Source: Octopus vulgaris (taxonomy: Eukaryota). Taken from it: a stretch of DNA of 64,000 bases. The position numbers and the translations under genes are program-made. How positions within the stretch are numbered: the stretch's first letter is position 1; each line of letters begins with the position of its first letter. Positions 250 through 63,320 of this stretch are shown here, in pieces. The notes below the pieces were generated by a model. That model made no database searches. It was not told the DNA's origin and saw nothing but the letters and a program-made list of their open reading frames with translations. The DNA is taken from NCBI GenBank assembly GCA_951406725.2, contig OX597814.1:159030001-159094000 (forward strand). The letters are read 5' to 3'.

Positions 250-279
250 CAACTGTAGACTCCACTTGAGAACGAGTTT
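250..279 (-). CDS. microexon [10 protein letters not shown] (A type)
   Basis: ctctag acceptor, 30 nt, GTGAGT donor. Confidence 0.85.
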
Positions 280-3200
280 CTAGAGAAAGGCAAACGTAAA
301 TATATTCCCTCAACACTTATGTCACACAATTTATTAAGACAGGAAAAAGGATTACATATATTCAACTCGTATAGAATGAGTGCTTTTCAAATGATAAATT
401 TAAGAAACTACTTCAATTACGCTACTACAAGAAACCACTTTGCAAACCTATCGTCATACTTTAACAGAATGGAAAATGCTTACATGAAGTAAATATTGAT
501 TGATTAGTCATAAGGATTTTACTTTCGTTTTGCTAAAGAATTAACGCAGAAATATATGTTACATATCTAGCTTATTGGTACACATCACGAGGAAAGATTG
601 TTCAGCAGCTTCCCTGTGCGTGTTACTTTTTCCGTTACAACTTCTGTGAAATTAATGAAATATGTAATTAAATATTTGGAAAGATAATTTAAAGCAGAAT
701 GCATAGCTATGTGGCGTTTACATAGGGAATTATATTAGCTAACTACGTCTTCTAGATCTCAGAATTTATCAAACGCAATCATATTCTCAGAGATATATAA
801 ATGTATGAATGTTCATATATATATATATACGTACCTATATACACACGTATCCATATACAAAAAGACACACACAAACATATATATATATGCCGATCTCTGA
901 CTTATGTGTGCATACTTCCTTAGATCTTTACATTTCGATAATATATACATCTCAGCAAAATATACAAATAGAATGTAAAGCTGAAACACTTTTTTATTTC
1001 CTTTTGCAGTGTATTTTTACTTTCTTGCTATTTTCTGTCTTTACACATCTTTCTCCTCATCACATGCTTTGACCATATGAAATTGCGATTTCATACATAC
1101 CAAAGAACATTTCAGCTATATATAAACGCTATCTCCTCGGACATTTCTGCATGGAATCTATATTTCAAATTATGTTTATTTACGTAACAAATTCGACAAA
1201 TGCGTAATTTTAAGTAACTATGTAATTACAAAAATATATATAATTCTGTGTATAAATCAGGATATGAAATAGAAAATTCTCATTTATTTCGAGTTAGAAA
1301 TTGCCGCTTGTCAAATACTTAGTATATAGGCAAGCATGTATTTGTGTCTGTTTGTGTGTTTAATGTCGTACATATTAGTTACTTTTTTCTTTTGCATCTA
1401 CTAATGTGTGTAACTAGCACTTTGCTATACATCCTGAAAAGAACACATGTGTTGAACGGAAGCAATATGTCACACTTTCAATTCTAAAAGAATACCTTTT
1501 CCTTACATTAAAATCAAATTGATTCTTCACATACTTTACAGGTGTCTAATCTATTCTCGAAAATTTGTTGCATTTCCATTCGCTCACTGTTCTCAAATAC
1601 ATTCGGCGATTTTGAAATTCAAACGTTTCAACGACAATGAAGGAAAAGTATAACCTCGACTGTTACAATGAAGCAAGGAAACATTTGACACCAACAACTG
1701 CTAAGTAGCATGTTTGAAATTCACAAAGCAAACACAAGTGTGGAGAAAGCGCAATACAATGTGGAAAAAACGCGGTTATATTTCTGAGTGTTCTGCATTT
1801 TCAGGAATCATACAGCATTATCGTCCGTGGTCTTTTTTTTTAGGACCAGAATGATGATCCATCATCTTTCTGCAAAACCTGTATTTTTCTTAGATATCTT
1901 TGGTTCTACACAGGAGTGTCATTCAAATATTAAAATAAAGATATACTTTATATGTTTAGAATAAGATAAAGTCGTATAACTAAAGATTGTTAGTAATAAA
2001 TTAAATAAAAGAAATTGGGCTGAAATGGTTTAATATATAAGCCACATTCAAGATCATATGTTGAGACGTGAAAAGAATTTGAACTGGGGCTGCGTATTAT
2101 ATTGTGCCTCTTCTAAATATAGGGTATTTAACTCGATTGTTCGTCACTTCTGCAGCGTAGCATATGGAGATTATTCATGTAAATGCGGACCAGGACTCGA
2201 TGCCGGTATTTTATTGTCTTTGTAATTGCATGCACTGTGCTCATATCAATGTATGTGTGTATGTAGGCTGTGTTAGGTGTAATGAAATATATTTTTGCGT
2301 GACTTTGTTTAGCTAGCAATATCTGATATACCTGACAATAGACAGTAAGCCTAAACGTTGAAAGCGAATGAAATTATTGCATGTAAGACTCACCAACAGT
2401 AGATTCAACTTCAGATGGTTTTTCTGAACGAAATCAAAATAAACTACAATAAGCATGTTGCTAAATTATTCGACGGGAAATGATATAATCCGTAAATGTT
2501 TGTTCAAATTTCTTCTTAAGTAATAGACCAACTATGACCTCTGCAAAATGCATTTCTTACAATTATACGCTAATAAGTTAACATCATATATTCGATCTGT
2601 AGTTCAATGAAGCATGTTTATGTCTTCAATATAGATTTATAATTATTTCATAAAACTCCGACTTTCATTAAACAAATGCAGAATTAAGTCGCGAATTTAC
2701 GAGAAAACATTCTTACAGGAAAATATGCGGTCAGAATACATTGGATTTTAAGTAACGCTATGCTTTAATATCAAATGCTCTTACCTATGCGAGTTTCGGT
2801 TTCTCTGATAATTTCTGTGAAATTCAAAACGTAAATCGTTAACTATGTCGTCGGCTATTTCATAATAGTCACGATTTTTAATAACGTTTCATACAATTAA
2901 GTATTACCAAGGAGGTGACGCACGAAAACACGTAGGTAAATATTTCTATCAATTTTGTTTATATAATTTAACATGAAAATGTTATGTAGGAATTTGGTAA
3001 TTTCGATATAAAAGAAAACCACAACAATCAGTTATTAACCGAGACATTATTTTTCGAGTACATCTCCCACTATATATATAGTAATTTCAAAGTTAATAAT
3101 GATGTACTATAACTAGTAATCATAAGAGTTTTGTTAAATTAAAACTGTACCAAATTAGGAGACACTTACCAACTGTGGCTTCGGCCTCAGATGGTTGTTC

Positions 3201-4735
3201 TGAATATGGAATGAAAGACATTATCATCAGCTTTTGCATCACATACAGATATAATATACGTAGACAGATAACCAAACATTCATTCACAACAATACACCTA
3301 CCTATTTTAAAGATATATTTCATAAAGCTATGCAAAATAATGCGGGACAATATATTATCTTGATTTGAAAGTGTTTTCAGTGTGACAATATATGTTCATT
3401 CCATCATTTGCAAAGGAGTCAACAAACAGTAACTTTTGTAAAAGCGACGTCGCCTTTGACATATTGCAAGCATATATCAACTTTACTACATTCATTTCGA
3501 TTAATATGTTACGCTTTCCAAACAAATTATAGCTAGCTAGTTAAACAGAAACCTAGTTCTATCGAGATAAGTTCGTAAACTGAAGATCTCTCACCTTTAG
3601 GACGCTCGTCCTGTTGCACAACATCTGTGAAATAATTAAATGATATATCAATTTCATGCTGATCAACACATGACTAATCTCTACAAATATATCAATCTAC
3701 TTTTGCAATTGCAAAGCTTTTCAAAAACCGAATGCCCTTTGCATGATTCGCTTTATTGTTTCTCTACGATTTCATTTTACACATTTAAAGCGCAGATAAA
3801 ATATATCAAACTATTTATTGCAATTACTATTTTACACGGTAGTGCGATGTGAATATATTTTGAGACGTGTTACTTTCTTTCAAATAAAGTTTCTCTCCAA
3901 TTAATCATACGCACTTCAATTATAACATGATAAATTTACACAATATACTTGAGATGTAGGAACAGACACAGTTTACAAGGTATTATACTGGAATGCGATA
4001 CAGTAAAACAGCATCTCAATCTTTTACATGCTATCGTTTGTATATTACTTATTATCTTATTTCTTAATGAATCATTATTCCAATTTCAACAAGACTTTGG
4101 AAAACCTCTCCAATTCCAAGTTAACTCAGCGACAAGCATAAGCAGGAAATCACGAAACTAATCTCTCACTCACCAACTGTAGACTCCACTTGAGAACGAG
4201 TTTCTAGAGAAAGGCAAACGTAAATATATTCCCTCAACACTTATGTCACACAATTTATTAAGACAGGAAAAAGGATTACATATATTCAACTCGTATAGAA
4301 TGAGTGCTTTTCAAATGATAAATTTAAGAAACTACTTCAATTACGCCACTACAAGAAACCACTTTGCAAACCTATCGTCATACTTTAACAGAATGGAAAA
4401 TGCTTACATGAAGTAAATATTGATTGATTAGTCATAAGGATTTTACTTTCGTTTTGCTAAAGAATTAACGCAGAAATATATGTTACATATCTAGCTTATT
4501 GGTACACATCACGAGGAAAGATTGTTCAGCAGCTTCCCTGTGCGTGTTACTTTTTCCGTTACAACTTCTGTGAAATTAATGAAATATGTAATTAAATATT
4601 TGGAAAGATAATTTAAAGCAGAATGCATAGCTATGTGGCGTTTACATAGGGAATTATATTAGCTAACTACGTCTTCTAGATCTCAGAATGTGTCAAATGC
4701 AATCATGTTCTCAGAGATATATAAATGTATGAATG

Positions 4736-4774
<39 letters not shown>

Positions 4775-4818
4775 GTACCTATATACACGCGTATCCATAT
4801 ACACAAAGACACACACAA

Positions 4819-4852
<34 letters not shown>

Positions 4853-7800
4853 CGATCTCTCACTTATGTATGCATACTTCCTTAGATCTATACATTTCGA
4901 TAATATATACATCTCAGCAAAATATACAAATAGAATGTAAAGCTGAAACACTTTTTTATTTCCTTTTGCAGTGTATTTTTATTTATTGCTATTTTCTGTC
5001 TTTACACCTCTTTCTTCTCATCACATGCTTTGACCATATGAATTTGCGGCTTCATACATACCAAAAAACATTTCAGCTATATATAAATGCTATCTCGTCG
5101 GACTTTTCTGCATGGAATCTATATTTCAAATAATGTTAATTTACGTAAAAAATTCGGCAAATGCGTAATTTTAAGTAACTATGTAATTACAAAAATATAT
5201 ATGATTCTGTGTATAAATCAGGTTATGAAATAGAAAATTCTCATATATTACGAATTAGAAACTGCTGCTTGTCAAATACTTAGTATATAGGCAAGCATGT
5301 ATTTGTGTCTGCTTGTGTGTTTAATGTCGTACATATTAGTTACTTTTTTCTTTTGCCTCTACTAATGTGTGTAACTAGCACTTTGCTATACATCCTGAAA
5401 AGAACACATGTGTTGAACGGAAGTAATATGTCACAGTTTCAATTCTAAAAAAATACCTTTTCCTTAAATTAAAATGAAATTGATTCCTCACATACTTTAC
5501 AGTTGTTTAATCTATTCTCGAAAATTTCTTGCATTTCCATTCGCTCAGTGTTCTCAAATACCTTCGGCTATTTTGAAATTCAAACGTTTCAACGACAAAG
5601 AAGGAAAAGTAAAACCTCGACTGTTACAATGAAGCAAGGAAACATTTGACACCAACAACTGCTAAGTAGCATGTTTGAAATTCGCAAAGCAAACACAAGT
5701 GTGGAGAAAGCGCAATGCAATGTGGAAAAAAACGCGATTATATTTCTGAGTATTCTGCATTTTCAGGAATCTTAAAGCATTACCGTCCATGGTCTTTTTT
5801 TTTAGGACCAGAATGATGATCCATCATCTTCTGCAAAACCTGTATTTTTCTTAGATTTCTTTAGTTCTACACAGGAGTGTCATTCAAATATTAAAATAAA
5901 TATATTCTTTATATACTTAGAATGCGATAAGGTCGTATAAATAAAGATTGTTAGCAATAAATTGAATAAAAGAATTTGGGCTGAAATGGTTTAATATACA
6001 AGCCACATTCAAGAGGATATGTTGCGACATGAAAAGAATTTGAACTGGGGCTGCGTATTATATTGTGCCCCTTCTCAATATAGGATATTTGACTCGATTG
6101 TTCGTCACTTCTGCAGCGTAACATATGGAGATTATTCATGTAAATGCGGACCAGGAATCGGTGCCGTTATTTGATTGTCTTTGTAATTGCATGCACAGTA
6201 CTCATATCAATGTATGTGTGTATGTAGGCTGTGTTAGGTGTAATGAAATATATTTTTGCGTGACTTTTTTTAGCTAGCAATATCTGATATACCTGACAAT
6301 AGACAGTAAGCCTAAACGTTGAAAGCGAATGAAATTATTGCATATGAGACTCACCAACAGTAGATTCAACTTCAGATGGTTTTTCTGAACGAAATCAAAG
6401 TAAACTACGATAAGCATGTTGCTAAATTATTCGACGGGAAATGATATAATCTGTAAATGTTTGTTCATATTTCTTCTTAAGTAATAGACCGCCAATGACC
6501 TTTGCAAAATGCATTTCTTACAATTATACGCTAATAAGTTAACATTATTTATATTCGATCTGTATTTCAATGCCTTCAATATAGATTTAGAATTATTTGA
6601 TAAAGCAACGCGTTCACTAATTAAATGCAGAATTCGCGGATTTACGAGAAAACATTCTTACAGGAATGTATGCGGTCAGTATATATTAATTTTAAGTAAC
6701 GCTATGCTATAATATCAAATCTTCTTACCTATGCGAGTTTCGGTTTCTCTGATAATTTCTGTGAAATTCAAAACGTAAATCGTTAACTATGTCGTCGATC
6801 ATTTCATAAAAGTCACGATTTTTAATGACGTTTCATACAATTAAGTATTACCAAGGAGGTGACGCACGAAAACACGTAGGTAAATATTTCTATCAATTTT
6901 GTTTATATAATTTAACATGAAAATGTTATGTAGGAATTTGGTAATTTCGATATAAAAGAAAACCACAACAACAAGTTATTAACCGAGACATTATTTTTCG
7001 AGTACATCTCCCACTATAAATATATAGTAATTTCAAAATTAATAATGATGTACTATAACTAGTAATCATAAGAGATTTGTTAAATTAGAACGGTACCAAA
7101 TTAGGAGACACTTACCAACTGTGGCCTCGGCCTCAGATGGTTGTTCTGAATATGGAATGAAATACACTATCATCAGCTTTTGCATCACATACAGATATAA
7201 TATACGTAGACAGATAACCAAACATTCATTCACAACAATACACCTACCTATTTTAAAGATATATTTCATAAAGCTATGCAAAATAATGCGGGACAATATA
7301 TTATCTTGATTTGAAAGTGTTTTCAGTGTGACAATAAATGTTCATTCCATCATTTGCAAAGGAGTCAACAAACAGTAACTTTTGTAAAAGCGACGTCGCC
7401 TTTGATATATTACAAGCATATATCAACTTTACTTCATTCATTTCGATTAATATGTTACGCTTTCCAAACAAATTATAGTTAGCTAGTTAAACAGAAACCT
7501 AGGTCTATCGAGATAAGATCGTAAACTGAAGCTCTCTCACCTTTAGGACGCTCGTCCTGTTGCACAACATCTGTGAAATAATTAAATGATATATCAATTT
7601 CATGCTGATCAACACATGACTAATCTCTACAAATATATCAATCTACTTTTGCAATTGCAAAGCTTTTCAAAAACCGAATGCCCTTTGCGTGATTCGCTTT
7701 ATTCTTTCTATACGATTTCATTTTACACATTTAAAGCGCACATAAAATATATCGAAATATTTATTGCAATTACTATTTTACACGGTAGTGCGATGTGAAT

Positions 7801-8677
7801 ATATTTTGAGACGTTTTATATTCTTTCAAATAAAGTTTCTCTGCAATTAATCATACGCACTTCAATTTTAACATGATAAATTTACACAATATATTTGAGA
7901 TGTAGGAACAGACACAGTTTACAAGGTCTTATACTGGAATGCGATACGGTAACACAGAATCGCAATCTTTTACATGCTATCGTTTGTATATTACTTATTA
8001 TCTTATTTCTTAATGAATCATTATTCCAATTTCAACAAGACTTTGGAAAACCTCTCCAATTCCAAGTTAACTCAGCGACAAGCATAAGCAGGAAATCACG
8101 AAACTAATCTCTCACTCACCAACTGTAGACTCCACTTGAGAACGAGTTTCTAGAGAAAGGCAAACGTAAATATATTCCCTCAATTTATTAAGACAATTTA
8201 TTAAGACAGGAAATTATATTAAATATATTCAACTCGTATAGAATGAGTGCTTTTCAAATGATAAATTTACGAAACTACTTCAATTACGCCACTACAAGAA
8301 ACCACTTTGCAAACCTATCGTCATACTTTAACAGAATGGAAAATGCTTACATGAAGTAAATATTGATTGATTAGTCATAAGAATTTTACTTTCGTTTTAC
8401 TAAAGGATTAACGCTGAAATATATGTTACATATCTAGCTTATTGGTACACATCACGAGGAAAGATTCTTCAGCAGCTTACCTGTGCGTGTTACTTTTTCC
8501 GTTACAACTTCTGTGAAATTAATGAAAAATGTATTAAATATTTGGAAAGATAATTTAAAGCAGAATGCATAGCTATGTGGCGTTTACATAGGGAATTATA
8601 TTAGCTAACTACGTCTTCTAGGTCTCAGAATTTGTCAAACGCAATCATATTCTCACAGATATATAAATGTATGAATG

Positions 8678-8740
<63 letters not shown>

Positions 8741-11700
8741 CCATTCGCTCACTGTTCTCAAATACCTTTCGGCGATTCTGAAATTCAAACGATTCAACGA
8801 CAATGGAGGAAAAGTAAAACCTCGACAATTAAGCAAGGAAACATTTGACACCAACAACTGCTAAGTAGCATGTTTGAAATTCGCAAATCAAACACAAGTG
8901 TGGAGAAAGCGCAATGCAATGTGGAAAAAAACGCGATTATATTTCTGAATATTCTGATTTTCAGGAATCTTAAAGCATTACCGTCCGTGGTCTTTTTTTT
9001 TAGGACCAGAATGATGATCCATCATCTTTCTGCAAAACCTGTATTTTTCTTAGATTTCTTTAGTTCTACACAGGAGTGTCATTCAAATATTAAAATAAAT
9101 ATATTCTTTATATATTTAGAATGCGATAAGGTCGTATAAATAAAGATTGTTAGTAATAAATTAAATAAAAGAAATTGGACTGAAATGGTTTAATATACAA
9201 GCCACATTCAAGAGGATATGTTGCGACATGAAAAGAATTTGAACTGGGGCTGCGTATTATATTGTGCCCCTTCTCAATATAGGATATTTGACTCGATTGT
9301 TCGTCACTTCTGCAGCGTAACATATGGAGATTATTCATGTAAATGCGGACCAGGAATCGGTGCCGTTATTTGATTGTCTTTGTAATTGCATGCACAGTAC
9401 TCATATCAATGTATGTGTGTATGTAGGCTGTGTTAGGTGTAATGAAATATATTTTTGCGTGACTTTGTTTAGCTAGCAATATCTGATACACCTGACAATA
9501 GACAGTAAGCCTAATCGTTGAAAGCGAATGAAATTATTGCATATGAGACTCACCAACAGTAGATTCAACTTCAGATGGTTTTTCTGAACGAAATCAAAAT
9601 AAACTACGATAAGCATGTTGCTAAATTATTCGACGGGAAATGATGTAATCTGTAAATGTTTGTTCATATTTCTTCTTAAGTAATAGACCGCCAATGACCT
9701 TTGCAAAATGCATTTCTTACAATTATACGCTAATAAGTTAACATTATTTATATTCGATCTGTATTTGAATGCCTTCAATATAGATTTATAATTATTTGAT
9801 AAAACAACGCGTTCACTAAACAAATGCAGAATTCGCGAATTTACGAGAAAACATTCTTACAGGAATGTATGCGGTCAGTATATATTGAATTTTAAGTTAC
9901 GCTATGCTATAATATCAAATCTTCTTACCTATGCGAGTTTCGGTTTCTCTGATAATTTCTGTGAAATTCAAAACGTAAATCGTTAACTATGTCGTCGATC
10001 ATTTCATAAAAGTCACGATTTTTAATGACGTTTCATACAATTAAGTATTACCAAGGAGGTGACGCACGAAAACACGTAGGTAAATATTTCTATCAATTTT
10101 GTTTATATAATTTAACATGAAAATGTTATGTAGGAATTTGGTAATTTCGATATAAAAGAAAACCACAACAATAAGTTATTAACCGAGACATTAGTTTTCG
10201 AGTACATCTCCCACTATAAATATATAGTAATTTCAAAATTAATAATGATGTACTATAACTAGTAATCATAAGAGATTTGTTAAATTAAAACGGTACCAAA
10301 TTAGGAGACACTTACCAACTGTGGCCTCGGCCTCAGATGGTTGTTCTGAATATGGAATGAAAGACATTATCATCAGCTTTTGCATCACATACAGATATAA
10401 TATACGTAGACAGATAACCAAACATTCATTTCACAACAATACACCTACCTATTTTAAAGATATATTTCATAAAGCTATGCAAAATAATGCGGGACAATAT
10501 ATTATCTTGATTTGAAAGTGTTTTCAGTGTGACAATAAATGTTCATTCCATCATTTGCAAAGGAGTCAACAAACAGTAACTTTTGTAAAAGCGACGTCGC
10601 CTTTGATATATTACAAGCATATATCAACTTTACTACATTCATTTCGATTAATATGTTACGCTTTCCAAACAAATTATAGTTAGCTAGTTAAACAGAAACC
10701 TAGGTCTATCGAGATAAGTTCGTAAACTGAAGATCTCTCACCTTTAGGACGCTCGTCCTGTTGCACAACATCTGTGAAATAATTAAATGATATATCAATT
10801 TTATGCTGATCAACACATGACTAATCTCTACAAATATACCAATCTACTTTTGCAATTGCAAAGCTTTTCAAAAACCGAATGCCCTTTGCGTGATTCGCTT
10901 TATTCTTTCTGTACGATTTCATTTTACACATTTAAAGCGCACATAAAATATATCGAAATATTTATTGCAATTACTATTTTACACGGTAGTGCGATGTGAA
11001 TATATTTTGAGACGTTTTATATTCTTTCAAATAAAGTTTCTCTCCAATTAATCATCCGCACTTCAATTTTAACATGATAAATTTACACAATATATTTGAG
11101 ATGTAGGAACAGACACAGTTTACAAGGTATTATACTGGAATGCGATACGGTAACACAGCATCTCAATCTTTTACATGCTATCGTTTGTATATTACTTATT
11201 ATCTTATTTCTTAATGAATCATTATTCCAATTTCAACAAGACTTTGGAAAACCTCTCCAATTCCAAGTTAACTCAGCGACAAGCATAAGCAGGAAATCAC
11301 GAAACTAATCTCTCACTCACCAACTGTAGACTCCACTTCAGAACGAGTTTCTAGAGAAAGGCAAACGTAAATATATTCCCTCAATTTATTTAGACAATTT
11401 ATTAAGACAGGAAAATATATTAAATATATTCAACTCGTATAGAATGAGTGCTTTTCAAATGATAAATTTACGAAACTACTTCAATTACGCCACTACAAGA
11501 AACCACTTTGAAAACCTATCGTCATACTTTAACAGAATGGAAAATGCTTACATGAAGTAAATATTGATTGATTAGTCATAAGAATTTTACTTTCGTTTTA
11601 CTAAAGGATTACCGCTGAAATATATGTTACATATCTAGCTTATTGGTACACATCACGAGGAAAGATTGTTCAGCAGCTTACCTGTGCGTGTTACTTTTTC

Positions 11701-14700: not shown

Positions 14701-15300
14701 TATTATTCTCTTTCTACAAGTACATTTGAAGACTTCTCGAAGGAAACTCAGCGATAAGCAGAAGCAACAAATCACGAAAATTATCTCTCACTCACCAACT
14801 GTAGATTCCACTTCAGTACGTGTTTCTAGAGAAAGGCAAACGTAAATATATTCCCTCAACAGACGGTGGACATCACACAGAATATATGAGTGACAGGCAT
14901 TAAATTTATTCAACTCGTGTAGAATATTTCAAATGATAAATTTACGAAAACCTCTTGTCACAGTTTACTAAAATGTTAAATGTTTACATGTATAAGATAT
15001 TAGCTGCGTAATCGAAAAAAATTCGCTTTCATTTTACTAAACAATTATCGCAGAAATATTTGTTACATCTAGTTTGTTGATACACATCGCGAGATAAAAT
15101 CCTTCAATAGCTTACCTGTACGAGTTACTTTTTCCGTTACGACTTCTGTGAAATTAACGAAATAGGAAGTTAAATATTTCGAATGATTCTTTACAACAAA
15201 ATGCATAGTTATTTGGTGGTTATATTACCTAAGTACGGCTTTTATATATTTAGGATACAATATGTTAGTTTGCTTTCTTTCATGGGAGCTAATATATTTC

Positions 15301-21100: not shown

Positions 21101-21223
21101 TTACCTGTACGGGTTACTTTTTCTGTTACGACTTCTGTAGAATTAATGAAATAAATAAATGACTCAAGAGAAACGTATACGAATCTATAATTACGTAGTT
21201 TCTATTATATACATATATTTGTG

Positions 21224-25647: not shown

Positions 25648-25683
<36 letters not shown>

Positions 25684-37384: not shown

Positions 37385-37850
37385 ATATATATATACACAT
37401 ATACATACATGTATACATGCATATGAACATACATATACACATATATACATATATATACATGTATTTGATATACATACATATATGTATGTAAGACTGGACG
37501 TCTTCCATTCTGATTAAACTTTAGCGGACTAAGTTCATCTACCATGGTACTAGAGCTTTAATGATATGGAAAATTAGTACATAACCCATGTGCAGATGGA
37601 GTAAAATTAAACTATTTAATTATATATATATAACAATTACAATTTTAGAAAATTAGTTGTCGCAGAAAAGTTTCAGATTTTAATACATCGTGTTACTTTT
37701 TCTGTTACAATTTCTGTGGAATTAACAAAATATGTAGTTAAATATTTGAAAATTACTATTATAATTACTTGTTTATACGTTTCTCTAATTAGTTGGTGCA
37801 TTGATTCTCGATTCGATATGTAGAATACGTAAATGCATATAAATAGGATA

Positions 37851-53376: not shown

Positions 53377-54712
53377 GTAATAATAAAGCTCTATTTTATG
53401 AAAACTAATTAGGAAACACTTACCAACTGTAGCTTCAACCCCAGAAGGTTGTTCTGAATACGAATTATATACAAATAGAAAAAAGAAACAAATTAAGACC
53501 TACTCGTCTACATGCACTTTCACACTTTACGAAATATTTTTCATTTGCTCAATCTCATATTGGTAAAGAAGTTAAGAAACAGGTTGCAATGAATTACTTA
53601 TTGAAAATTGGTCAGTAGTTGTAAGTAACTGATAAAAATTTGTTTTAAACTGGATACACTTTATGGTATTCTACATTATTCAATAAGTGTACATCAATAA
53701 TCCGAAGGCATTTATGATAAGGTATTTCGAATATTTTCAAATGTATGTAAATGATTTTCAAGACATTTACACGGTATATAGCATAGAATTTCTGATCTAT
53801 TGTGGTAATTTCTAAAGTGGAAAATTGCTCACCTCTGGGACGCTCTTCCTGCGTCACAATATCTGTGAAATTAATGAAACATTATTGCAATTTCGTATCA
53901 AGCATTTGCTAATATAAAGCTAGCAAGAATATTAGAACTAATGGATGCCTTGGAACGATAGAAAGCATTGCCAATTAACAATAAGCATATGTTTAGAAAG
54001 AAGTGATTTTTCCTTTCAATTCCTGTAAAAATATTCTAATATTTCAAATACACACATGCTTTATAATTATATAAAAGCATTCATCACAAACATTGTACTT
54101 TCGTAAGAGCTTATATTATGAAAACAGAAACTTCAGTTTCAAATCCTAACGTAACTGAATTACAGACATTATTCTGGGCATATTGCACGATAGAATATGT
54201 AATGTATAACACAGAAATGCCATAATAACTAACACATTCCAACATAGACTTTAACCATTACAGTATTTATCATAACATTATATAATATTCCACTACACTT
54301 ATTCCCTAGAATATATGCGATATTACAATTCCATCTACATTTTCTATATTATCTACAAAATACTTATATAGCGAAAAGAATGACAAACGTGGTTTTAACA
54401 ACGTTTTAAAGGCAATATTAAAAGTAACATCCTACATATCAAATAGAAAACACAGCCCTTAAATGGGACAAGTTCAAAATATTTATCGTTTATTAGCAAC
54501 ATAGAATATAACAAAACTCTACACAAGAACATATGAAGATATCAAAACGTAATCACGTGAGAATAAATTATCTCACTCACCAACTGTAGATTCCACCTCC
54601 GAACGTGTTTCTAGTGAAAGAAATGTAAAATACGTCCGTCAATTGACTATACAGACATTGACACAGACATATATACTAAACATTTTGAGACGTGCACTTT
54701 TTAGGTGAATAC

Positions 54713-55953: not shown

Positions 55954-57041
55954 CACATTATATATGTATATATACATTGTATACCTATGTATATGTATAT
56001 ATAGAGAGAGACATATTCACACACACATATTCACACACACACGCACACATATATCTATGATACTAGAGGTTTTCATTTCTGACTACTCTTTAGCGGATCA
56101 TAAACATCTCTCATGGCTGGACTTTATCTTATTTGAAAATTGATACTCACGGGATTTATAAATCAAATATACTTAAGCAATTGCAGCATCAACTACATTA
56201 ATCAAAACAATCGCAAATTAAAAAGGAATATCGCAGGAAAATGTCAGATTTTAATACATATTTTGAAAAATCTTCTGAATAGCATACCTGTACGAGTTAC
56301 TTTCTCCGTTACAATCTCTGTGGAATTAACGAAACATGTAGTTAGATATTTGAAAGAAACTTTATAAGAGTATGCAACGTTGTTTATATGCAGAATATTA
56401 TGCAAATTTTATATCTGCATACTTTTCCATTCGCACATAAGCATACACTGAAAACACCCAATGATAATAAAATCAAGCAGTTATGCTTATGCAGAGATAG
56501 ATCCAGTTTTCCATAAGATAACCAATGTATAACAAAGAATGTGATATACTAGTGCACTATAAACACTGGAGGAAGATCCTGCGTATATATCTGGGCATCG
56601 GCCGATTTTTCAAAAATTGATATTGCAACAACATCGCCAGATTTCGAAATATCCTTAAACGACATGCAACATCGCTAGCCGATTTTATCTGGTGGTTTAA
56701 GGAAGCGCAAACAAAATACGACCTTACATGGTCCATACTTAGATATGCGAGTCCCTACACTATATCCCGGAAATGCCAGATATATACCGAGGAGTCCCTC
56801 TCGATAATGTTAACAAAGGCACATTACAAATAAATTCATTGAACAATTACCCAGATTCCTACACGCAGCTAAACACAAATTCACATATTACCATACCGAC
56901 CATTCATATTTTGATGTATACATGTGGCCACAACTCTTAAAAGACCTGAACTTGAGGAATTATATTCGAATAACTTGTATTTGACATATGATCTTGCAAT
57001 CGATATCCAAATATGTATATTCATATATGTATGTATGTATT

Positions 57042-57094
<53 letters not shown>

Positions 57095-57198: not shown

Positions 57199-57248
<50 letters not shown>

Positions 57249-58609: not shown

Positions 58610-58643
<34 letters not shown>

Positions 58644-61600
58644 CTGTGTGTGCGCTTTTATGAGATTAAACCGTCGACCAGAGTGGTGCTTCAAAAGACT
58701 AAGATTTTCACTAGTAGGACTGATGTGGTTAATTTTTCTCTTAAACGGGTAAAAAAAGACAGTGTCAGATAACCTCTATGCAGTCAATTTTTTTGAAAGG
58801 TCGGCATTCAAGGATGTAGGATTCGTTGAAATGGCTTTTACTGAACCCAAGAAAATATGAGTGCTGAGAAGCATAGATGTGCAGAAATAACAATATGGAG
58901 TGCTTCGCTGCGTTTGGATAGAATATGACGAAACATAGATCGCACAAGTAACTATAAAAAATGTAATAAATCAGGACGTACGAGGTCAGAATTTGGATCT
59001 TTTCGTGCACGACTTCAAACAATTCAATAGAGTATATATTTTAGATAAACCCTTTGATATTTCTGAGTTTAAAGATAACACGCACCATGGTGCTAGAGTT
59101 GTACTGAATTATGGGACTCAGTTTTATAAAATGGTTGCTGGTGAATAAAGATGAATTGGTCTTCATCTTCTAACCTCGAAGGTCAAAAACCAATCTTTGT
59201 CATGTAGGCGTCGGTTTGTTGAGGATAGGTTTGTTTGCCAAGTAGTTGCAGTGACGGTGTGGTCTAGCATTTCTAGTAACTTTGAGAGTTCTAGTTATGT
59301 TATAGTAGGATGTGGGTATTTTCTTTAGGTAGTGTCTTTGTCATGTTGAACAAGAGGAATATAGCATGTTCTTATGGGTAGATTATATAAGTATTTGTTT
59401 TGTGGGAAGTAGAAATTTTTCAGACGAGCAGTATAGATTTCATGTAGAATGCTACGTTCAGAATGTCGGGAAATAATGAAAAGCAGTTTTATATGTATAA
59501 GAGAAGGTTTTATCGGATCAGAGATAAAGACACTTATGTCTTTATAGTATATTAAGATGAATATAAAAGCGAATTCCTGAGAGATTACCAGTTTATATTG
59601 ACTATTAGACGGAATTCTAAGACATTTCACCTACAAGATTACGGGCTAGACACAGTCGAATGAATGTGTTGGTGTGAGTGCGTATGTGTATGTATTAGCA
59701 TGGCTGCATGTGTGAGTGTGTCTGTGTGAGTGTGTCTGTGTGAGCGTGAGTGTGTGTATGTGAGTCTATGTGTATATGTGTTTGTGCCTGTATGTGGGTG
59801 TGTTTGCGTTGGTGTCTCTATGTATATAAATGTAGTGTAGATAGAGTATTCTGGTGCTAGATACGCTCATTTTGATGTTGATATAATAATTCATGATTTA
59901 AAACAATGACTTCAAAGGAAAAAAACATTCTAATTGATTCACTACACGTAATCCAACTAAATGTTCAATATACAGTAGAAAATGTCCGTGATTTATTACA
60001 GTCAAGATTTTCGTCTACTAGGTGATTCAGAAATAATCTGTTATTTCGAACATAAATATGAAAACGAAATGAAGCAATAAGATACTTATCAAAAGCAGAA
60101 AAGCGAAGGAACAGACACCAGACATGAGTTAGAAACATACGAATTATCCAAAGATTATATATTGCATCAAGAAAAAGAACAAAGCAAATTAAAGGCTATG
60201 CATACATAGTCGCTTTGGAAGTCAGAATTACTAAATGTCATGTTAACAGGAAAATAAGAGCGAATTTCTGAGATTAAAGCAGGGTTCATTGACTATGAGG
60301 TATAGAATTCTAAGATATTTCGATGCGCCAAGATACAGCTTCTATACGGTAGTTTCGCCAACAGATTTGCGAGCTAGACAGTCAAATGTATGGGTGTGTA
60401 TATGTTTTGGTGTGTGTGTGTATGTATGGGTGTGCGTGTGAGTGTGTGTGTGTGTGTGTACTCACAGTATTCTGACACTAGATGTGCGTAATTTGATGTT
60501 GATATAATAATTCATAATTTACGATGTTGACTTCAAACTGTAATACGTTGTGATTGATTCACAACACGTAATCCAACTAAATATTCAATATACTGTATAA
60601 AATGTCCTAGACCACATTACAGTCAAGATTTTCGTCTACTAGGTGATTCAGCAATAATCTCTTATTTCGAACATAAATATGAAAACGAAATGAAGCAATA
60701 AGATACTTATCAAAAGCAGACAAACGAGGGAACTGACACCAGACATGAGTTAGAAACATACGAATTATCCAAAGATTATATATTGCACCAAGAAAAAGAA
60801 CAAAGCAAATTAAAAGCTATGCATACATAGTCGCTTTGGAGGTCCGAATTACTAAATGTCATGTACGTTAAATATAAATATACAGATATGCTCTAGATGT
60901 TGCATATCATTCCCCCCATGATCATGTAGCACAGTTGGGATGCTGTAACTACATGTACTTTATTTTAAATTATATTTACATATTTCACGTGTGAACAGTG
61001 AAGCCAAACACTGAAAGCGATCAAAATCATTCTCAAATAGACTCACCAACTGTAGATTCAATTTCAGATGGTTTTTCTGAACGAAATAAAAATTATAGTA
61101 CAATAAGTACATAGGTGAAATAATTTGTACACAAACACACATTCGTGTCTAAAATTTTATAAATGCTTACGCATGTTATTGTAGGTTATTGCATCTTAAA
61201 TATGCCTTTGTTATATTGATATTTCATTTACAAACTTTACATCTCACTAAGTTTAACTGAAGCATATTTACCGGTTTTATTTACTCTTTTACAAATACTA
61301 CAAATTTATTTGAACCAGAAATATTTCCTAACAATAAATTCAAAATTGCAAAGGGAAACTTATCAGTATGTGCTTACCAATTCGGGATTCGGTTTCTTGA
61401 ATAATTTCTGTGGAATTAACAATACCAGGTTTTAGCTTTTGTCTTTATCAATTAGTAAAATGAACAAAGCTTTGCTCTCAATATATACAATTAAATCTAC
61501 ACGGAGATATTCGTCACGAAACTTCTATAGAAATTATTCTATTTTTGCATACTATGCAGAACATGATTTAATAATAAATATTTTAAAAGCAAATATGTCT

Positions 61601-63320
61601 TACATATTAGTTCATAGCTAGGCAAATTATATATTGAATCTTCATTTGAATAAATGTAGTAGCTAAATATATGACGAATGACATACTTATATATTTTCAT
61701 TAAAACTACTTAGGAAACACTTACCAACTGTGGCGTCGACCTCAGTAGGTTGTTCTGAACATAAAATAAAAAGATTGTGACAATAGAGAACTAACCTCCA
61801 ATACAATGAAAACACAAATATATGTAATAAAAATTTTTTCATGATCGTTTAACTACACTATATTTCGGGAAATAGCTCAATTATTTAACATGCTTGCATG
61901 TTATGTTTATCCATGTATCTTATACATAGATAGAGAGGGAGAGAAAGAGACAGAGAGTGATGATGATGATCATCATCATCATTATCATCCCGATGATCAT
62001 GATGATTTCCTCATCTTGTCAGATGTTAGCCCTCTCACATTCAGCTTAATTCTGCTGTTTTACTTTCATCCTTGCTTATGCACGAAGATTTCCTTACCAC
62101 ACAACTTTATAAATTACAAAACGAATCAATGAATTAAATAATAGCTAGACATCGGTACCCCACTGGATGTAAGTGACGACACCTTGAACCACACATTTCC
62201 CACTCACTCGGCCGCCATAGTAGGTTCCAGTGCTAAGCGTTGCATGATGACAAGTACTATTTCGACAGCAAGTTTTACGTCAGTTTCTTTCTCCTAGAAG
62301 AGCTGCCTTCCCCCGCAGGTTAGTCAGAAATAACAAGAGATTTCTCTACTCCACGTAAAATGTATTTAACACGCAGATGGGACGACCCTAACAGGCATTA
62401 GCGGTCCGGATAAGAACGGATGCAGTCATCGGGTGCTTTTTAAATGCAGCAACCGCGCGCGCACACACACACTCACACACAAACGCATAAACGAAAGTGT
62501 ATAACATAGAATTTCTTATCTATTGTATAAATTTCTAATGTAGAAAATTGCTCACCTCTGGGACGCTCTTCCTGCGTCACAATATCTGTGAAATTAATGA
62601 TATAATATTGCAATTTCATATCATTATTTGCGAATATAAAGTTAACAAGAATATTTAAATTAATGGATAACTGAGAATCCTTAAAATCATTACCAATTAA
62701 ATATAAACGTAAGCTTTGAAAGAAGTGACTCTTCCTTTCAATTCGAGTGAAAAAATTTAACATTTCAAATACACATACCCTTTATAATTACATAAAAGCA
62801 TTCATCTCAAACATTGTATTTTCGTAAGATCAGATATTATGAAAACAGCAACGTTAATATCAAACACTAGCGTAAATCAATTAGACATTACTCTGGGCAT
62901 ATTGCACACTATATTTGATACATAACACAGAAATGCCAAAATATCTAAAACAATTACCCATTATAATATATATTATATCCTTATGCAATAAGAGCCCTAC
63001 ACTTTTCCTTAGAATATGTACTGTTACGATAACATTTACATTGTTATATTCTCCACAAAATACTTATATGACAAAAAAAATAGGAAACTTTTTCCTTAAC
63101 TTCAATTTTGTTAAAGGAACGGTAATATATCGTCTAACCTATCATATACAAAACACAGTCCTTAAATGTATCATAGAAAGGTCCAAAATATATAATTTTC
63201 ATTAGCAACATAGAATATAACAGAAACACTACACAAGAAGATATGAAAATATATAAACGTAATCACGTGAGAATAAATTATCTCACTCACCAGCTGTAGA
63301 TTCCACCTCCGAACGTGTTT
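250..63320 (-). CDS. Internal part of a large microexon-built gene: 65 intact phase-1 exons (about 1938 nt, 646 aa) encoding acidic E/T/S/V/R 10-aa repeats; start and stop lie outside the window
   Basis: Recurrent plus-strand pattern ctcac/cttac + 30 nt + ct, i.e. minus-strand AG-[30 nt]-GT(A/G)AG. All exons read open in the same phase and show synonymous divergence while flanking introns diverge. Confidence 0.9.
614..643 (-). pseudogene. microexon [10 protein letters not shown] with donor mutated GT>GG
   Basis: gcttccctg here versus gcttacctg in the paralogs at 8481 and 11682. Confidence 0.75.
2394..2423 (-). CDS. microexon [10 protein letters not shown] (A)
   Basis: ttcag acceptor, 30 nt, GTGAGT donor. 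Confidence 0.85.
2785..2814 (-). CDS. microexon [10 protein letters not shown] (B)
   Basis: tttcacag acceptor, 30 nt, GTAAG donor. Confidence 0.85.
   Translation of the reverse strand, partial: KLSEKPKLA
3170..3199 (-). CDS. microexon [10 protein letters not shown] (A)
   Basis: ttcag acceptor, 30 nt, GTAAGT donor. Confidence 0.85.
3595..3624 (-). CDS. microexon [10 protein letters not shown] (B)
   Basis: tttcacag acceptor, 30 nt, GTGAG donor. Confidence 0.85.
4174..4203 (-). CDS. microexon [10 protein letters not shown] (A)
   Basis: AG, 30 nt, GTGAGT. Confidence 0.85.
4538..4567 (-). pseudogene. microexon [10 protein letters not shown] with donor mutated GT>GG
   Basis: Same donor substitution as at 614. 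Confidence 0.75.
6355..6384 (-). CDS. microexon [10 protein letters not shown] (A)
   Basis: AG, 30 nt, GTGAGT. Confidence 0.85.
6729..6758 (-). CDS. microexon [10 protein letters not shown] (B)
   Basis: AG, 30 nt, GTAAG. Confidence 0.85.
   Translation of the reverse strand, partial: KLSEKPKLA
7116..7145 (-). CDS. microexon [10 protein letters not shown] (A)
   Basis: AG, 30 nt, GTAAGT. Confidence 0.85.
7541..7570 (-). CDS. microexon [10 protein letters not shown] (B)
   Basis: AG, 30 nt, GTGAG. Confidence 0.85.
8120..8149 (-). CDS. microexon [10 protein letters not shown] (A)
   Basis: AG, 30 nt, GTGAGT. Confidence 0.85.
8481..8510 (-). CDS. microexon [10 protein letters not shown] (B)
   Basis: AG, 30 nt, GTAAG (donor intact). 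Confidence 0.85.
9554..9583 (-). CDS. microexon [10 protein letters not shown] (A)
   Basis: AG, 30 nt, GTGAGT. Confidence 0.85.
9929..9958 (-). CDS. microexon [10 protein letters not shown] (B)
   Basis: AG, 30 nt, GTAAG. Confidence 0.85.
   Translation of the reverse strand, partial: KLSEKPKLA
10316..10345 (-). CDS. microexon [10 protein letters not shown] (A)
   Basis: AG, 30 nt, GTAAGT. Confidence 0.85.
10742..10771 (-). CDS. microexon [10 protein letters not shown] (B)
   Basis: AG, 30 nt, GTGAG. Confidence 0.85.
11321..11350 (-). CDS. microexon [10 protein letters not shown] (A)
   Basis: AG, 30 nt, GTGAGT. Confidence 0.85.
11682..11711 (-). CDS. microexon [10 protein letters not shown] (B)
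   Basis: AG, 30 nt, GTAAG. Confidence 0.85.
12723..12752 (-). CDS. microexon [10 protein letters not shown] (A)
   Basis: AG, 30 nt, GTGAGT. Confidence 0.85.
13113..13142 (-). CDS. microexon [10 protein letters not shown] (B)
   Basis: AG, 30 nt, GTAAG. Confidence 0.85.
   Translation of the reverse strand, partial: KLSEKPKLA
13498..13527 (-). CDS. microexon [10 protein letters not shown] (A)
   Basis: AG, 30 nt, GTAAGT. Confidence 0.85.
13925..13954 (-). CDS. microexon [10 protein letters not shown] (B)
   Basis: AG, 30 nt, GTGAG. Confidence 0.85.
14796..14825 (-). CDS. microexon [10 protein letters not shown] (A)
   Basis: AG, 30 nt, GTGAGT. Confidence 0.85.
15116..15145 (-). CDS. microexon (E/K)VVTEKVTRT (B)
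   Basis: AG, 30 nt, GTAAG. Confidence 0.85.
17145..17174 (-). CDS. microexon [10 protein letters not shown] (divergent A, ends in A not G)
   Basis: actag acceptor, 30 nt, GTGAGT donor. Confidence 0.65.
17491..17506 (-). pseudogene. remnant of an [10 protein letters not shown]-type exon truncated at a LINE fragment
   Basis: cttatttgtacgagct resembles cttacctgtacgagtt at the expected spacing; donor reads AT. Confidence 0.55.
17505..17720 (-). mobile_element. decayed RTE-like non-LTR retrotransposon, 3' ORF fragment
   Basis: Minus strand encodes [20 protein letters not shown] then (frameshift) ALFYGQ, matching the LRW.GHV.RM motif C-terminal to RTE-type RT. Confidence 0.7.
18758..18787 (-). 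CDS. microexon [10 protein letters not shown] (A)
   Basis: AG, 30 nt, GTGAGT; synonymous codon variants. Confidence 0.85.
19152..19181 (-). CDS. microexon [10 protein letters not shown] (B)
   Basis: AG, 30 nt, GTAAG. Confidence 0.85.
   Translation of the reverse strand, partial: KLFKKPNLA
19525..19554 (-). CDS. microexon [10 protein letters not shown] (A)
   Basis: AG, 30 nt, GTAAGT. Confidence 0.85.
19996..20025 (-). CDS. microexon [10 protein letters not shown] (B)
   Basis: AG, 30 nt, GTGAG. Confidence 0.85.
20775..20804 (-). CDS. microexon [10 protein letters not shown] (A)
   Basis: ttatag acceptor, 30 nt, GTGAGT. Confidence 0.85.
21105..21134 (-). CDS. microexon [10 protein letters not shown] (B)
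   Basis: AG, 30 nt, GTAAGT. Confidence 0.85.
22745..22774 (-). CDS. microexon [10 protein letters not shown] (A)
   Basis: AG, 30 nt, GTGAGT. Confidence 0.85.
23508..23537 (-). CDS. microexon [10 protein letters not shown] (B)
   Basis: AG, 30 nt, GTAAG. Confidence 0.85.
24063..24580 (-). mobile_element. decayed CR1/L2-like LINE ORF2 fragment (between endonuclease and RT)
   Basis: Minus strand pieces: [48 protein letters not shown]. Confidence 0.7.
25547..25576 (-). CDS. microexon [10 protein letters not shown] (A)
   Basis: AG, 30 nt, GTGAGT. Confidence 0.8.
25876..25905 (-). pseudogene. decayed B-type microexon ([10 protein letters not shown], from EIIxETESRI), donor TT
   Basis: cttaa + 30 nt + ctatgaaatt at the expected distance from the 25547 exon. 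Confidence 0.55.
27665..27694 (-). CDS. microexon [10 protein letters not shown] (A)
   Basis: AG, 30 nt, GTGAGT. Confidence 0.85.
28602..28631 (-). CDS. microexon [10 protein letters not shown] (B variant)
   Basis: AG, 30 nt, GTAAG. Confidence 0.85.
28928..28951 (-). CDS. 24-nt microexon DRPYAETI
   Basis: catctag acceptor, 24 nt, GTGAGT; paralog at 48134. Confidence 0.8.
29743..29772 (-). CDS. microexon [10 protein letters not shown]
   Basis: ttaacag acceptor, 30 nt, GTAAG; paralog at 48485. Confidence 0.8.
30878..31042 (+). repeat. polypurine (GAA/GGA)n low-complexity tract
   Basis: Seen directly. Confidence 0.85.
31686..31715 (-). CDS. microexon [10 protein letters not shown] (A)
   Basis: AG, 30 nt, GTGAGT. 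Confidence 0.85.
32015..32044 (-). CDS. microexon [10 protein letters not shown] (B)
   Basis: AG, 30 nt, GTAAG. Confidence 0.85.
35008..35037 (-). CDS. microexon [10 protein letters not shown] (A)
   Basis: AG, 30 nt, GTGAGT. Confidence 0.85.
35396..35425 (-). CDS. microexon [10 protein letters not shown] (B)
   Basis: AG, 30 nt, GTAAG. Confidence 0.85.
   Translation of the reverse strand, partial: RLLQKPNLA
35792..35896. mobile_element. about 105-bp mariner-type MITE
   Basis: Imperfect 28-bp TIRs cgaggggtgtatgaaaggttttgagcct / aggctcaagacttttcatacatccttcg, TA on the right flank; absent from the paralogous intron near 53140. Confidence 0.7.
36152..36181 (-). CDS. microexon [10 protein letters not shown] (A), weak GTGTGT donor
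   Basis: cttag acceptor, 30 nt, GTGTGT. Confidence 0.7.
36594..36623 (-). CDS. microexon [10 protein letters not shown] (B)
   Basis: tttcgcag acceptor, 30 nt, GTGAG. Confidence 0.85.
37165..37194 (-). CDS. microexon [10 protein letters not shown] (A)
   Basis: AG, 30 nt, GTGAGT. Confidence 0.85.
37689..37713 (-). pseudogene. EIVTEKVTR exon whose donor was removed by a deletion of about 30 bp
   Basis: Comparison with the intact paralog region 56240-56317. Confidence 0.75.
38540..39260 (-). mobile_element. highly decayed retroelement fragment, similar to 58660-59640 (Penelope-like?)
   Basis: Shares words with the element in the paralogous intron; family call weak. Confidence 0.35.
39954..39983 (-). 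CDS. microexon [10 protein letters not shown] (A)
   Basis: AG, 30 nt, GTGAGT. Confidence 0.85.
40254..40283 (-). CDS. microexon [10 protein letters not shown] (B)
   Basis: AG, 30 nt, GTAAG. Confidence 0.85.
   Translation of the reverse strand, partial: KVLKKRNLE
40600..40629 (-). CDS. microexon [10 protein letters not shown] (A)
   Basis: AG, 30 nt, GTAAGT. Confidence 0.85.
40929..40965 (-). pseudogene. possible remnant of a D(I/V)VxQxERP-type exon
   Basis: ttgct...gcaacatctgaaaaattaataag resembles ttgctcac...acaacatctgtgaaattaat at the expected position. Confidence 0.4.
41702..41731 (-). CDS. microexon [10 protein letters not shown] (divergent A)
   Basis: gattag acceptor, 30 nt, GTGAGT. 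Confidence 0.7.
41896..42286 (+). mobile_element. tRNA-derived SINE nested in the mariner
   Basis: Pol III A box TGGCCCAGTGG and B box GGTTTCGATTCC, about 390 bp, simple-repeat tail. Confidence 0.8.
42364..43260 (+). pseudogene. frameshifted mariner transposase
   Basis: ORF pieces 42862-43056 (SAGKVM) and 43005-43244 (DNA..H, YSPDL.P.D). Confidence 0.85.
45327..45356 (-). CDS. microexon [10 protein letters not shown] (divergent A)
   Basis: catcag acceptor, 30 nt, GTGAGT; several non-synonymous changes. Confidence 0.6.
45895..45924 (-). pseudogene. decayed B microexon with in-frame TAG (EIV*KYITRI)
   Basis: ctgtag acceptor, 30 nt, weak T|GTAAAA donor. Confidence 0.6.
46750..46779 (-). CDS. 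microexon [10 protein letters not shown] (A)
   Basis: ttcccccag acceptor, 30 nt, GTGAGT; paralog of 27665. Confidence 0.75.
47776..47805 (-). CDS. microexon [10 protein letters not shown]
   Basis: AG, 30 nt, GTAAG; paralog of 28602. Confidence 0.8.
48134..48157 (-). CDS. 24-nt microexon DRPHAETI
   Basis: AG, 24 nt, GTGAGT. Confidence 0.8.
48485..48514 (-). CDS. microexon [10 protein letters not shown]
   Basis: AG, 30 nt, GTAAG. Confidence 0.8.
48812..49058 (-). mobile_element. 5'-truncated SINE-like insertion
   Basis: GC-richer 250-bp block absent from the paralogous intron (about 30030-30070); SINE identity inferred. Confidence 0.5.
50359..50406 (-). ncRNA. minimal type-I hammerhead ribozyme-like motif (variant core)
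   Basis: GUCU-CCGAUGA-A-GGGAUAU(AAAAA)AUAUCCC-G-GAAA-CAGCUG-UA-AGAC. Confidence 0.5.
50898..50909 (-). pseudogene. remnant of the [10 protein letters not shown] exon (18-nt deletion, donor CT)
   Basis: gattcagcaactgaagtttctagt versus gactcaccaactgaagtttcaacctcaggacgtgtttctagt at 31679. Confidence 0.75.
52496..52525 (-). CDS. microexon [10 protein letters not shown] (A)
   Basis: AG, 30 nt, GTGAGT. Confidence 0.85.
52864..52893 (-). CDS. microexon [10 protein letters not shown] (B)
   Basis: AG, 30 nt, GTAAG. Confidence 0.85.
   Translation of the reverse strand, partial: KLLQRPNLA
53424..53453 (-). CDS. microexon [10 protein letters not shown] (A)
   Basis: AG, 30 nt, GTAAGT. Confidence 0.85.
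53833..53862 (-). CDS. microexon [10 protein letters not shown] (B)
   Basis: AG, 30 nt, GTGAG. Confidence 0.85.
54581..54610 (-). CDS. microexon [10 protein letters not shown] (A)
   Basis: AG, 30 nt, GTGAGT. Confidence 0.85.
54974..55727. mobile_element. foldback/MITE-like element with imperfect inverted arms of about 240 bp and internal subrepeats
   Basis: aggagtcttttaaaagtattta...aagattttcaaaagtaaagtat mirrored by atactttacttttgaaaatctt...taaatacttttaaaagactcct; flanked by (TA)n. Confidence 0.75.
56288..56317 (-). CDS. microexon [10 protein letters not shown] (B)
   Basis: ttccacag acceptor, 30 nt, GTATG donor. Confidence 0.85.
56566..56802. mobile_element. small inverted-repeat element (MITE-like)
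   Basis: tatatatctgggcat ... atgccagatatata imperfect inverted arms. Confidence 0.4.
57533..57585 (+). ncRNA. degenerate hammerhead-like core followed by AATAAA (Penelope-type terminus?)
   Basis: CUGAAGA-GACCC(AGAAC)GGGUC-GAAA-CAUG-UG. Confidence 0.4.
58660..59640 (-). mobile_element. decayed Penelope-like (GIY-YIG) retroelement fragment
   Basis: Minus-strand remnants YPQTNRRLHD and ESYILECRP resemble GIY-YIG motifs; many stops. Confidence 0.45.
59560..60870. repeat. local tandem duplication, about 650-700 bp unit
   Basis: 59850-60245 is repeated at 60465-60865. Confidence 0.85.
61047..61076 (-). CDS. microexon [10 protein letters not shown] (A)
   Basis: AG, 30 nt, GTGAGT; identical to the 39954 exon. 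Confidence 0.85.
61378..61407 (-). CDS. microexon [10 protein letters not shown] (B)
   Basis: AG, 30 nt, GTAAG. Confidence 0.85.
61725..61754 (-). CDS. microexon [10 protein letters not shown] (A)
   Basis: AG, 30 nt, GTAAGT. Confidence 0.85.
62556..62585 (-). CDS. microexon [10 protein letters not shown] (B)
   Basis: AG, 30 nt, GTGAG. Confidence 0.85.
63291..63320 (-). CDS. microexon [10 protein letters not shown] (A)
   Basis: AG, 30 nt, GTGAGT. Confidence 0.85.

Follow-up and report, generated by a model that had tools for sequence, protein, structure and literature searches.

A run of at least 265 microexons encodes an acidic linker in a putative octopod obscurin (UNC-89 family) gene

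What kind of protein is encoded by DNA in which nearly every recognizable exon is 30 nt long? This question is raised by a 64,000-nt stretch (the window) of the 2.8-Gb Octopus vulgaris genome (C1:159030001-159094000; OX597814.1), which holds 65 minus-strand exons flanked by AG/GT splice sites, all of phase 1-1, comprising 63 exons of 30 nt and two of 24 nt that run from 63291-63320 (the first) to 250-279 (the last) and sum to 1,938 nt, or 3.03% of the window. These counts, lengths, phases and ends, as well as a coding share of about 3%, reproduce exactly what had been proposed in an earlier sequence-only reading. Without any training, a scan for pyrimidine-rich AG[n]GT-consensus pairs returned, at n = 30, 37 matches on the minus strand versus none on the plus strand; a splice-site model trained on the scan seeds returned 59 versus 0, a ratio that is partly circular because the seeds came from the minus strand. 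The remaining exons were added through looser splice scoring and peptide similarity, giving the final 63 + 2. The earlier statement that the window has no larger exon agrees with inspection by eye of its 64 open reading frames of ≥90 aa, none of which resembled a coding exon. A noncoding RNA reading was dropped, as an Rfam search of the window gave 0 matches.

Examination of 740 kb of flanking DNA revealed that the window covers the middle of a longer array, in which at least 265 microexons follow one another over 233 kb from C1:159199059 down to 158965869, with 96 exons upstream and 104 downstream of the window. All of them have AG/GT sites and phase 1-1, with lengths of 30 nt (256 exons), 27 nt (5 exons) and 24 nt (4 exons) and a median intron of 423 nt. 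The joined array is 7,911 nt long and encodes 2,636 residues without a stop codon; indeed, no pairing of an exon end with an exon start within the array creates a stop, and the propositions that each exon is one module and that any subset of exons stays in frame thus hold for all 265. As a control, 423 of 706 random AG[30]GT candidates outside the array were stop-free. The encoded linker is rich in E (24%), T (16%) and V (15%), followed by S (9%), R (7%), I (6%) and P (5%; 4.9% more precisely), so that P+E+V+K make up 48%, S+T 25% and V+I+T 37%. Exon types A to F recur in order as a six-exon, 60-residue super-repeat, of which 28 complete units were found, while a less frequent block, G-h-I, includes a 24-nt exon. 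Of the 235 classed transitions, 219 alternate between two exon classes, and autocorrelation of the linker peaks at 20, 40 and 60 residues, the peptide repeat being a 20-residue exon pair nested in the 60-residue unit. Within the window, the array is arranged as follows.

63291-63320, 62556-62585, 61725-61754, 61378-61407, 61047-61076; minus strand; exons of types B, C, D, E and F
56288-56317, 54581-54610, 53833-53862, 53424-53453, 52864-52893, 52496-52525; minus strand; exons A to F
48485-48514, 48134-48157 (24 nt), 47776-47805, 46750-46779, 45327-45356; minus strand; exons G, h, I, F and J
41702-41731, 40600-40629, 40254-40283, 39954-39983; minus strand; four exons
37684-37713; minus strand; dead type A copy, acceptor kept and donor decayed, outside the 65
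37165-37194, 36594-36623, 36152-36181, 35396-35425, 35008-35037; minus strand; exons B to F
32015-32044, 31686-31715; minus strand; exons A and B, the latter present in loose ends of RNA-like contigs
29743-29772, 28928-28951 (24 nt), 28602-28631, 27665-27694, 25547-25576, 23508-23537, 22745-22774; minus strand; seven exons joined in RNA-like contigs
21105-21134, 20775-20804, 19996-20025, 19525-19554, 19152-19181, 18758-18787; minus strand; exons A to F
17145-17174; minus strand; lone predicted type B exon whose donor context is weaker, with A ahead of GT
15116-15145, 14796-14825, 13925-13954, 13498-13527, 13113-13142, 12723-12752; minus strand; exons A to F
11682-11711, 11321-11350, 10742-10771, 10316-10345, 9929-9958, 9554-9583; minus strand; exons A to F
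8481-8510, 8120-8149, 7541-7570, 7116-7145, 6729-6758, 6355-6384; minus strand; exons A to F
4538-4567; minus strand; type A copy, dead or silent, with an intact exon sequence and GG in place of the donor GT, outside the 65
4174-4203, 3595-3624, 3170-3199, 2785-2814, 2394-2423; minus strand; exons B to F
614-643; minus strand; another type A copy lacking its donor in the same way as 4538-4567, carried by unit duplication, outside the 65
250-279; minus strand; type B exon, the last of the window

To assess splicing of these exons, assembled contigs of four runs from four studies were placed on window positions 21500 to 30700; the label "RNA" for these runs is a guess, and they were taken as RNA because spliced joints with bare introns fit RNA. 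All six consecutive junctions of the seven exons in this interval were joined at the exact predicted GT-AG sites, four of the six in all four runs, and loose contig ends continued into the adjacent exons at 31715 and 21134, so the neighboring exons are spliced together as the sequence-only reading would have it. Separately, many RNA-like contigs at 90 to 95% identity with non-GT-AG joints covered the intronic interval 24025 to 25136 of the window in two runs, and this interval is probably a transcribed interspersed repeat. The exons were also more conserved than their surroundings, a point that had likewise been raised for checking: same-type exons were 84 to 88% identical, versus 60 to 68% in the aligned flanking intron. 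Codon position 2 was the most and position 3 the least conserved in all six exon types, and pN/pS was 0.29 over 138 nearest-neighbor exon pairs, with mostly silent substitutions. The array is real, expressed and under purifying selection; neither of the two outcomes that the sequence-only reading had named as refuting, a lack of spliced junctions and 30-mers conserved no better than intron, came about.

Considering the repetitive nature of the locus, an origin of the whole feature in chance splice-like motifs or assembly duplication had to be weighed. In one pair of neighboring introns identity reached 100%, and an 81-base probe had two identical copies upstream; a few copies could accordingly be assembly or allele duplicates. 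Against such an artefact stand the strand and length specificity of the scan, the spliced contigs, the 169 distinct sequences among the 265 exons, block identities that mostly lie below 99%, and the presence of the same modules in two other species; as an account of the feature as a whole this vanishingly improbable reading is refuted. Some neighboring units (L001-L002 and L040) were identical or near-identical over probes of 81 to 355 bases, so a few of them may represent very recent or allelic copies.

Blocks of 1 to 9 kb recur in the array at 75 to 98% identity. In the window, the unit 61047 to 63320 shares ∼98% identity with two copies outside the window, on its upstream side, while the unit 9554 to 11711 is a recent tandem unit with 94 to 98% identity to its neighbors. 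Four dead exon copies were found, two of which are type A exons that are intact except for loss of the donor. Linker length changes through block duplication and single-exon death, and decay of a splice site costs ten residues without a frameshift because the exons are symmetric. The very recent blocks at 94 to 98% identity and the dead copies might suggest that runaway tandem duplication produced the array as a tolerated by-product in which only frame and rough composition matter, and the copy order, which is unlike that of the O. bimaculoides and Argonauta models, would suit such a view. We regard it as very unlikely, given the pN/pS of 0.29, the codon-position pattern, the stronger conservation of exons than of introns, the retention of module sequences in Argonauta, and the ratio of 265 exons with intact sites to four dead copies.

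The identity of the gene was sought in the flanks. The sequence-only reading had described a gene region made only of microexons; the gene as a whole is not, since large domain exons, beginning with single-exon Ig domains, lie ∼6 kb beyond either end of the array, and the flank inspection for Ig, Fn3 and kinase exons that it had recommended recovered all three on the same strand. Fourteen single-exon Ig domains lie upstream and ∼21 downstream of the array; Pfam I-set was matched in the genome on both sides, along with SH3 and fn3, and all 51 Ig-like matches around the locus were on the minus strand. RhoGEF and PH domains were found in an O. bimaculoides model whose exons map collinearly to the locus at about 86 to 100%. 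On the minus strand, the downstream order is an Ig run, SH3, DH, PH, Ig, twelve and then four more Fn3, two Ig, a kinase, a linker, an Ig, an Fn3-like exon and a second kinase. No kinase motifs occurred within 300 kb downstream; the two separate Pkinase regions, with the Ig and Fn3-like exon between them, turned up further out, ∼360 to 396 kb downstream of the window start. When matches to the whole SH3-DH-PH segment were looked up, ten relatives (an annelid, a hemichordate, three echinoderms, amphioxus and four vertebrates) were obtained, five of which are named unc-89-like, obscurin-like or obscurin and five unnamed, which among the entries looked up places the signaling module with obscurins rather than with Trio/Kalirin; the RefSeq name of the O. 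bimaculoides orthologue is "obscurin, partial". Judged by this domain architecture, the window is the middle of an octopod obscurin (UNC-89 family) muscle scaffold gene. The suggestion that the microexons might code for the acidic linker in a giant protein of muscle is thereby supported, and the domains around the array place that protein in the obscurin/UNC-89 family.

Several observations concern the remainder of this gene. Ten 30-nt spacer microexons lie between Ig exons of the downstream run (C1:158930865-158955118), and a single 24-nt microexon lies between upstream Ig exons (C1:159233876). Several broken Ig exon copies occur at C1:158940700-158951000 and a 100-N gap falls inside one Ig exon of the downstream run, which makes the copy number of this run uncertain. 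After the PH domain and Ig, a P/E/V/K/A-rich 14-residue tandem repeat occupies part of one large exon (L025:5514-6575, minus strand), the opposite design to the microexon linker within the same gene. In two of the seven O. vulgaris models (P0170 and P0171), an extra 20 residues are inserted where the DH domain begins. Flanking introns (L016, L038 and others) contain, by eye, what we take to be fragments of mariner transposases and LINE reverse transcriptases.

The public octopus models stop after Fn3 12, where they have a short terminal exon (C1:158839929-158839976), while one snail model joins the Fn3 run to the first kinase. From the architecture and this snail model, we infer that the kinase end belongs to the same gene as the array. 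Fn3, Ig and two kinase regions follow the terminal exon after introns of 60 to 75 kb, suggesting that short and long C-terminal forms exist. A hand tally gave 21 upstream exons, 265 array exons, 21 intact Ig exons, 10 spacer microexons and 36 exons to the short end, or 353 in all; the kinase part in place of the short end adds 19 places (15 by tblastn and 4 by eye). Provided that the kinase end is part of the same gene, the locus would have about 370 exons, near the 363 of the human titin gene, described in the accessible text of PMC12198301 as the largest number.

Much of this protein is already in the databases. Seven O. vulgaris "titin-like" models (CAI9716209-15) are automatic entries, and in CAI9716211.1 all 166 modules match genome exons exactly, corresponding to 166 of the 265 array exons, 39 of the 65 in the window, and a linker of 1,647 of 6,586 residues; the expectation that standard annotation would probably miss the region was therefore too pessimistic. 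Modules were also found in two further automatic entries that likewise end before the kinases, the O. bimaculoides model XP_052826240.1 (92) and the Argonauta hians model GAB1597548.1 (48, joined to the downstream Ig run), the Argonauta modules matching those of O. vulgaris at a median of 8 of 9 residues. Copy order differs from that in both models, and two modules of an older O. bimaculoides model could not be matched well to this genome. Among the exons omitted from the O. vulgaris annotation, 76 of 99 have a non-unique junction, versus 24 of the 166 included, which indicates that annotation loss is mainly a mapping effect of recent near-identical copies; on the same ground, alternative splicing was rejected as the explanation of the big gaps in the public models. 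One exon of the window (40254-40283) is missing in one of the seven models.

A linker with 10/20/60-residue periodicity was absent from 24 relatives that were long or aligned over SH3-DH-PH (of 150 listed), the ten looked up by name being of annelid, hemichordate, echinoderm, amphioxus and vertebrate origin; two of the 24 carry other short-period stretches. An annelid model has Ig before SH3, plus a 560-residue E/T/S-rich stretch without a clear period. In the literature searched, which left aside most subscription journals, no publication was found that deals with the obscurin linker or a microexon array in cephalopods; the main text of a preprint that includes O. bimaculoides splicing (10.64898/2026.09.05.749416) mentions neither obscurin nor titin, and its supplements may list the exons of this array. 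Thus, the protein and much of its linker are already in databases and the extreme exon layout is apparently undescribed. The annotation can be corrected: the "titin-like" entry is an obscurin that lacks about 100 modules and ends before the kinases.

What, then, might the linker do? From its composition, one structural model and analogy, we consider it rather probable that it is a mostly disordered, acidic, extensible spacer in octopod obscurin. Such a spacer would act like the PEVK segment of titin or the interkinase spring of UNC-89 and would set the reach and compliance of the N-terminal arm of obscurin. With all modules used and fully stretched, and taking 0.36 nm per residue as an assumption, the contour would be ∼0.95 μm (∼950 nm); the full protein would have an estimated mass near 1 MDa. 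The net charge is −0.16 per residue, and the hydropathy of 0.40 falls below the charge-hydropathy boundary of 0.47, on the disordered side. A 336-residue piece from O. vulgaris was modeled by AlphaFold as coil (pLDDT 35), while an Argonauta piece gave a low-confidence strand meander with a 20-residue period; neither model is decisive, since both used a single sequence and an Ig control folded poorly. A search of the ESM Atlas with the Argonauta linker gave no usable match and was uninformative. The low proline content sets the linker apart from the cited proline-rich springs and counts against a spacer. Moreover, the hydrophobic moment was raised at strand periodicity (0.354 versus 0.265 ± 0.011 in shuffles), with 0.318 versus 0.268 at helix periodicity; this strand-period moment, the V+I+T content of 37% and the Argonauta meander suggest that the chain may not be a plain coil.

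These features lead to a different function, in which each 20-residue unit is a V/I/T-rich strand across an exon junction that folds on a periodic partner or stacks on its neighbors, the linker serving as a binding ruler. Strand-addition binding is familiar from other muscle and bacterial repeats. The partner pictured, a filament protein or tandem beta domains, would fit the alternation of exon classes and the 20/40/60-residue peaks, and the strong position-specific conservation, with a pN/pS that is tight for a featureless coil, the close match of the Argonauta modules and the meander in one model speak in the same direction. Nevertheless, each 60-residue unit carries a net charge of about −9, the O. 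vulgaris piece models as coil, units without A or C exons are tolerated, the alternation could follow from duplication of even-numbered blocks, and the partner is only hypothetical. Considering both sides, we hold this reading to be a serious one that is nonetheless unlikely.

Since any exon subset is in frame and stop-free, free muscle-type exon skipping could in principle produce a ladder of linker lengths. Three public-model junctions leave out one exon (window 40254-40283 and the exons at C1:159170946 and C1:159112154) and correspond to no pair of consecutive exons in the genome, in two of the seven O. vulgaris models the last microexon is connected to sequence beyond the entire downstream Ig run, and two O. 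bimaculoides models diverge right after the last upstream Ig. On the other hand, no skip joint was among the joints listed for the seven exons in the four RNA-like runs, in contigs that drop rare variants; the large gaps of the public models fall mostly on non-unique sequence, pointing to mapping loss; the skips in these models may be prediction errors; and six of the seven O. vulgaris models have one common linker sequence. Combinatorial splicing of this kind is thus distinctly improbable. As for the splice-tunable length proposed in the sequence-only reading, the frame symmetry on which it was built stands, while the tuning itself is hinted at only by the three model junctions.

Returning to the extensible spacer, the array grows by tandem duplication of multi-exon blocks and loses single modules on splice-site decay. 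Most exons are probably included together, and length differences would arise between species from copy number and between isoforms from occasional or block skipping rather than from free shuffling. A bolder version, which we put forward speculatively and think unlikely, is that octopod obscurin is a titin-like adjustable element that helps to define the range over which obliquely striated muscle works, with a linker of up to ∼1 μm made of two-exon, 20-residue units whose number is set by muscle-type splicing and rapid copy-number change. If true, and with the kinase end included, a gene matching or passing human titin in exon number would encode this element.

Comparison with known systems places the gene among the obscurins. 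The domain plan of obscurin/UNC-89 is described in the accessible text of PMC12812942 and 10.1101/2020.04.03.023374, and the octopus gene shares with vertebrate OBSCN, Caenorhabditis elegans unc-89 and Drosophila Unc-89 the tandem Ig domains, SH3-DH-PH, Ig plus Fn3, kinase, linker, Ig, Fn3 and kinase. It differs from these obscurins in that its Ig run is split by the 2,636-residue microexon-coded linker and in having at least 16 Fn3 domains. Short obscurin isoforms without kinases exist, and the annotated kinase-less end in octopus resembles these. Ig runs ahead of SH3-DH-PH, the order found here, correspond to the chordate type of a 2026 review, in whose accessible text molluscs are mentioned nowhere (0 occurrences; PMC12812942). 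The interkinase region of UNC-89 is treated as an entropic spring in the accessible part of 10.1101/2020.04.03.023374, and the KSP region of UNC-89 sits between Ig runs according to that of PMC2120741. The interkinase region has ∼650 residues, is proline-rich and lies between the kinases, whereas the octopus linker is four times longer, N-terminal and threonine/valine-rich, and the octopus gene has its own separate interkinase exon(s) besides.

As regards the exon layout, neural microexons of the eMIC/SRRM type are described as showing neural-specific inclusion via SRRM3/4 or Srrm234 (PMC8797185, as far as its accessible text goes). In the octopus array, the RNA-like contigs showed the exons included one after the other. 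The micro-exon genes (MEGs) of Schistosoma, with which the array had been compared at the outset, contain runs of short symmetric exons of 6 to 36 bp (PMC5825161, accessible text), and a long run of such exons (265 of 24 to 30 nt, phase 1-1) is indeed shared. Membership was rejected: microexons account for 1,647 of 6,586 residues in the public model, versus ∼80% of the coding sequence in MEGs, and the product is an Ig/Fn3/RhoGEF scaffold, whereas MEG products are secreted or membrane proteins lacking known homologues, so the octopus region is not of that kind.

The closest parallel is titin. Bilaterian titins generally have a single kinase and are not known to carry a RhoGEF module, and membership in titin was rejected on the grounds of 4.9% proline, a P+E+V+K content of 48%, and the presence of SH3-DH-PH and two kinases. 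Like the titin PEVK segment as covered in the accessible text of PMC6469411, the linker is a low-complexity acidic segment between Ig runs, encoded by many short duplicated exons whose number varies by species and which are hard to annotate. It differs in belonging to another gene family, in having at least 265 exons versus the 74 to 109 given for mammals in the same source (PMC6469411), in fixing 256 of them at 30 nt, and in its low proline. Regulated splicing is established for titin, whereas here the three model junctions hint at exon skipping. By analogy, the linker most likely works like titin PEVK, without being a titin or a MEG, and is best read as convergent with it, finer-grained and with over twice the exons. 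It would then represent a second, independent way of arriving at a titin-PEVK-like design, in another giant protein and with one 30-nt exon per ten residues, and a concrete candidate for tuning the passive mechanics of octopus muscle. The array also lends itself naturally to studying how the spliceosome copes with hundreds of microexons in succession, and how exons arise and die when frame symmetry holds.
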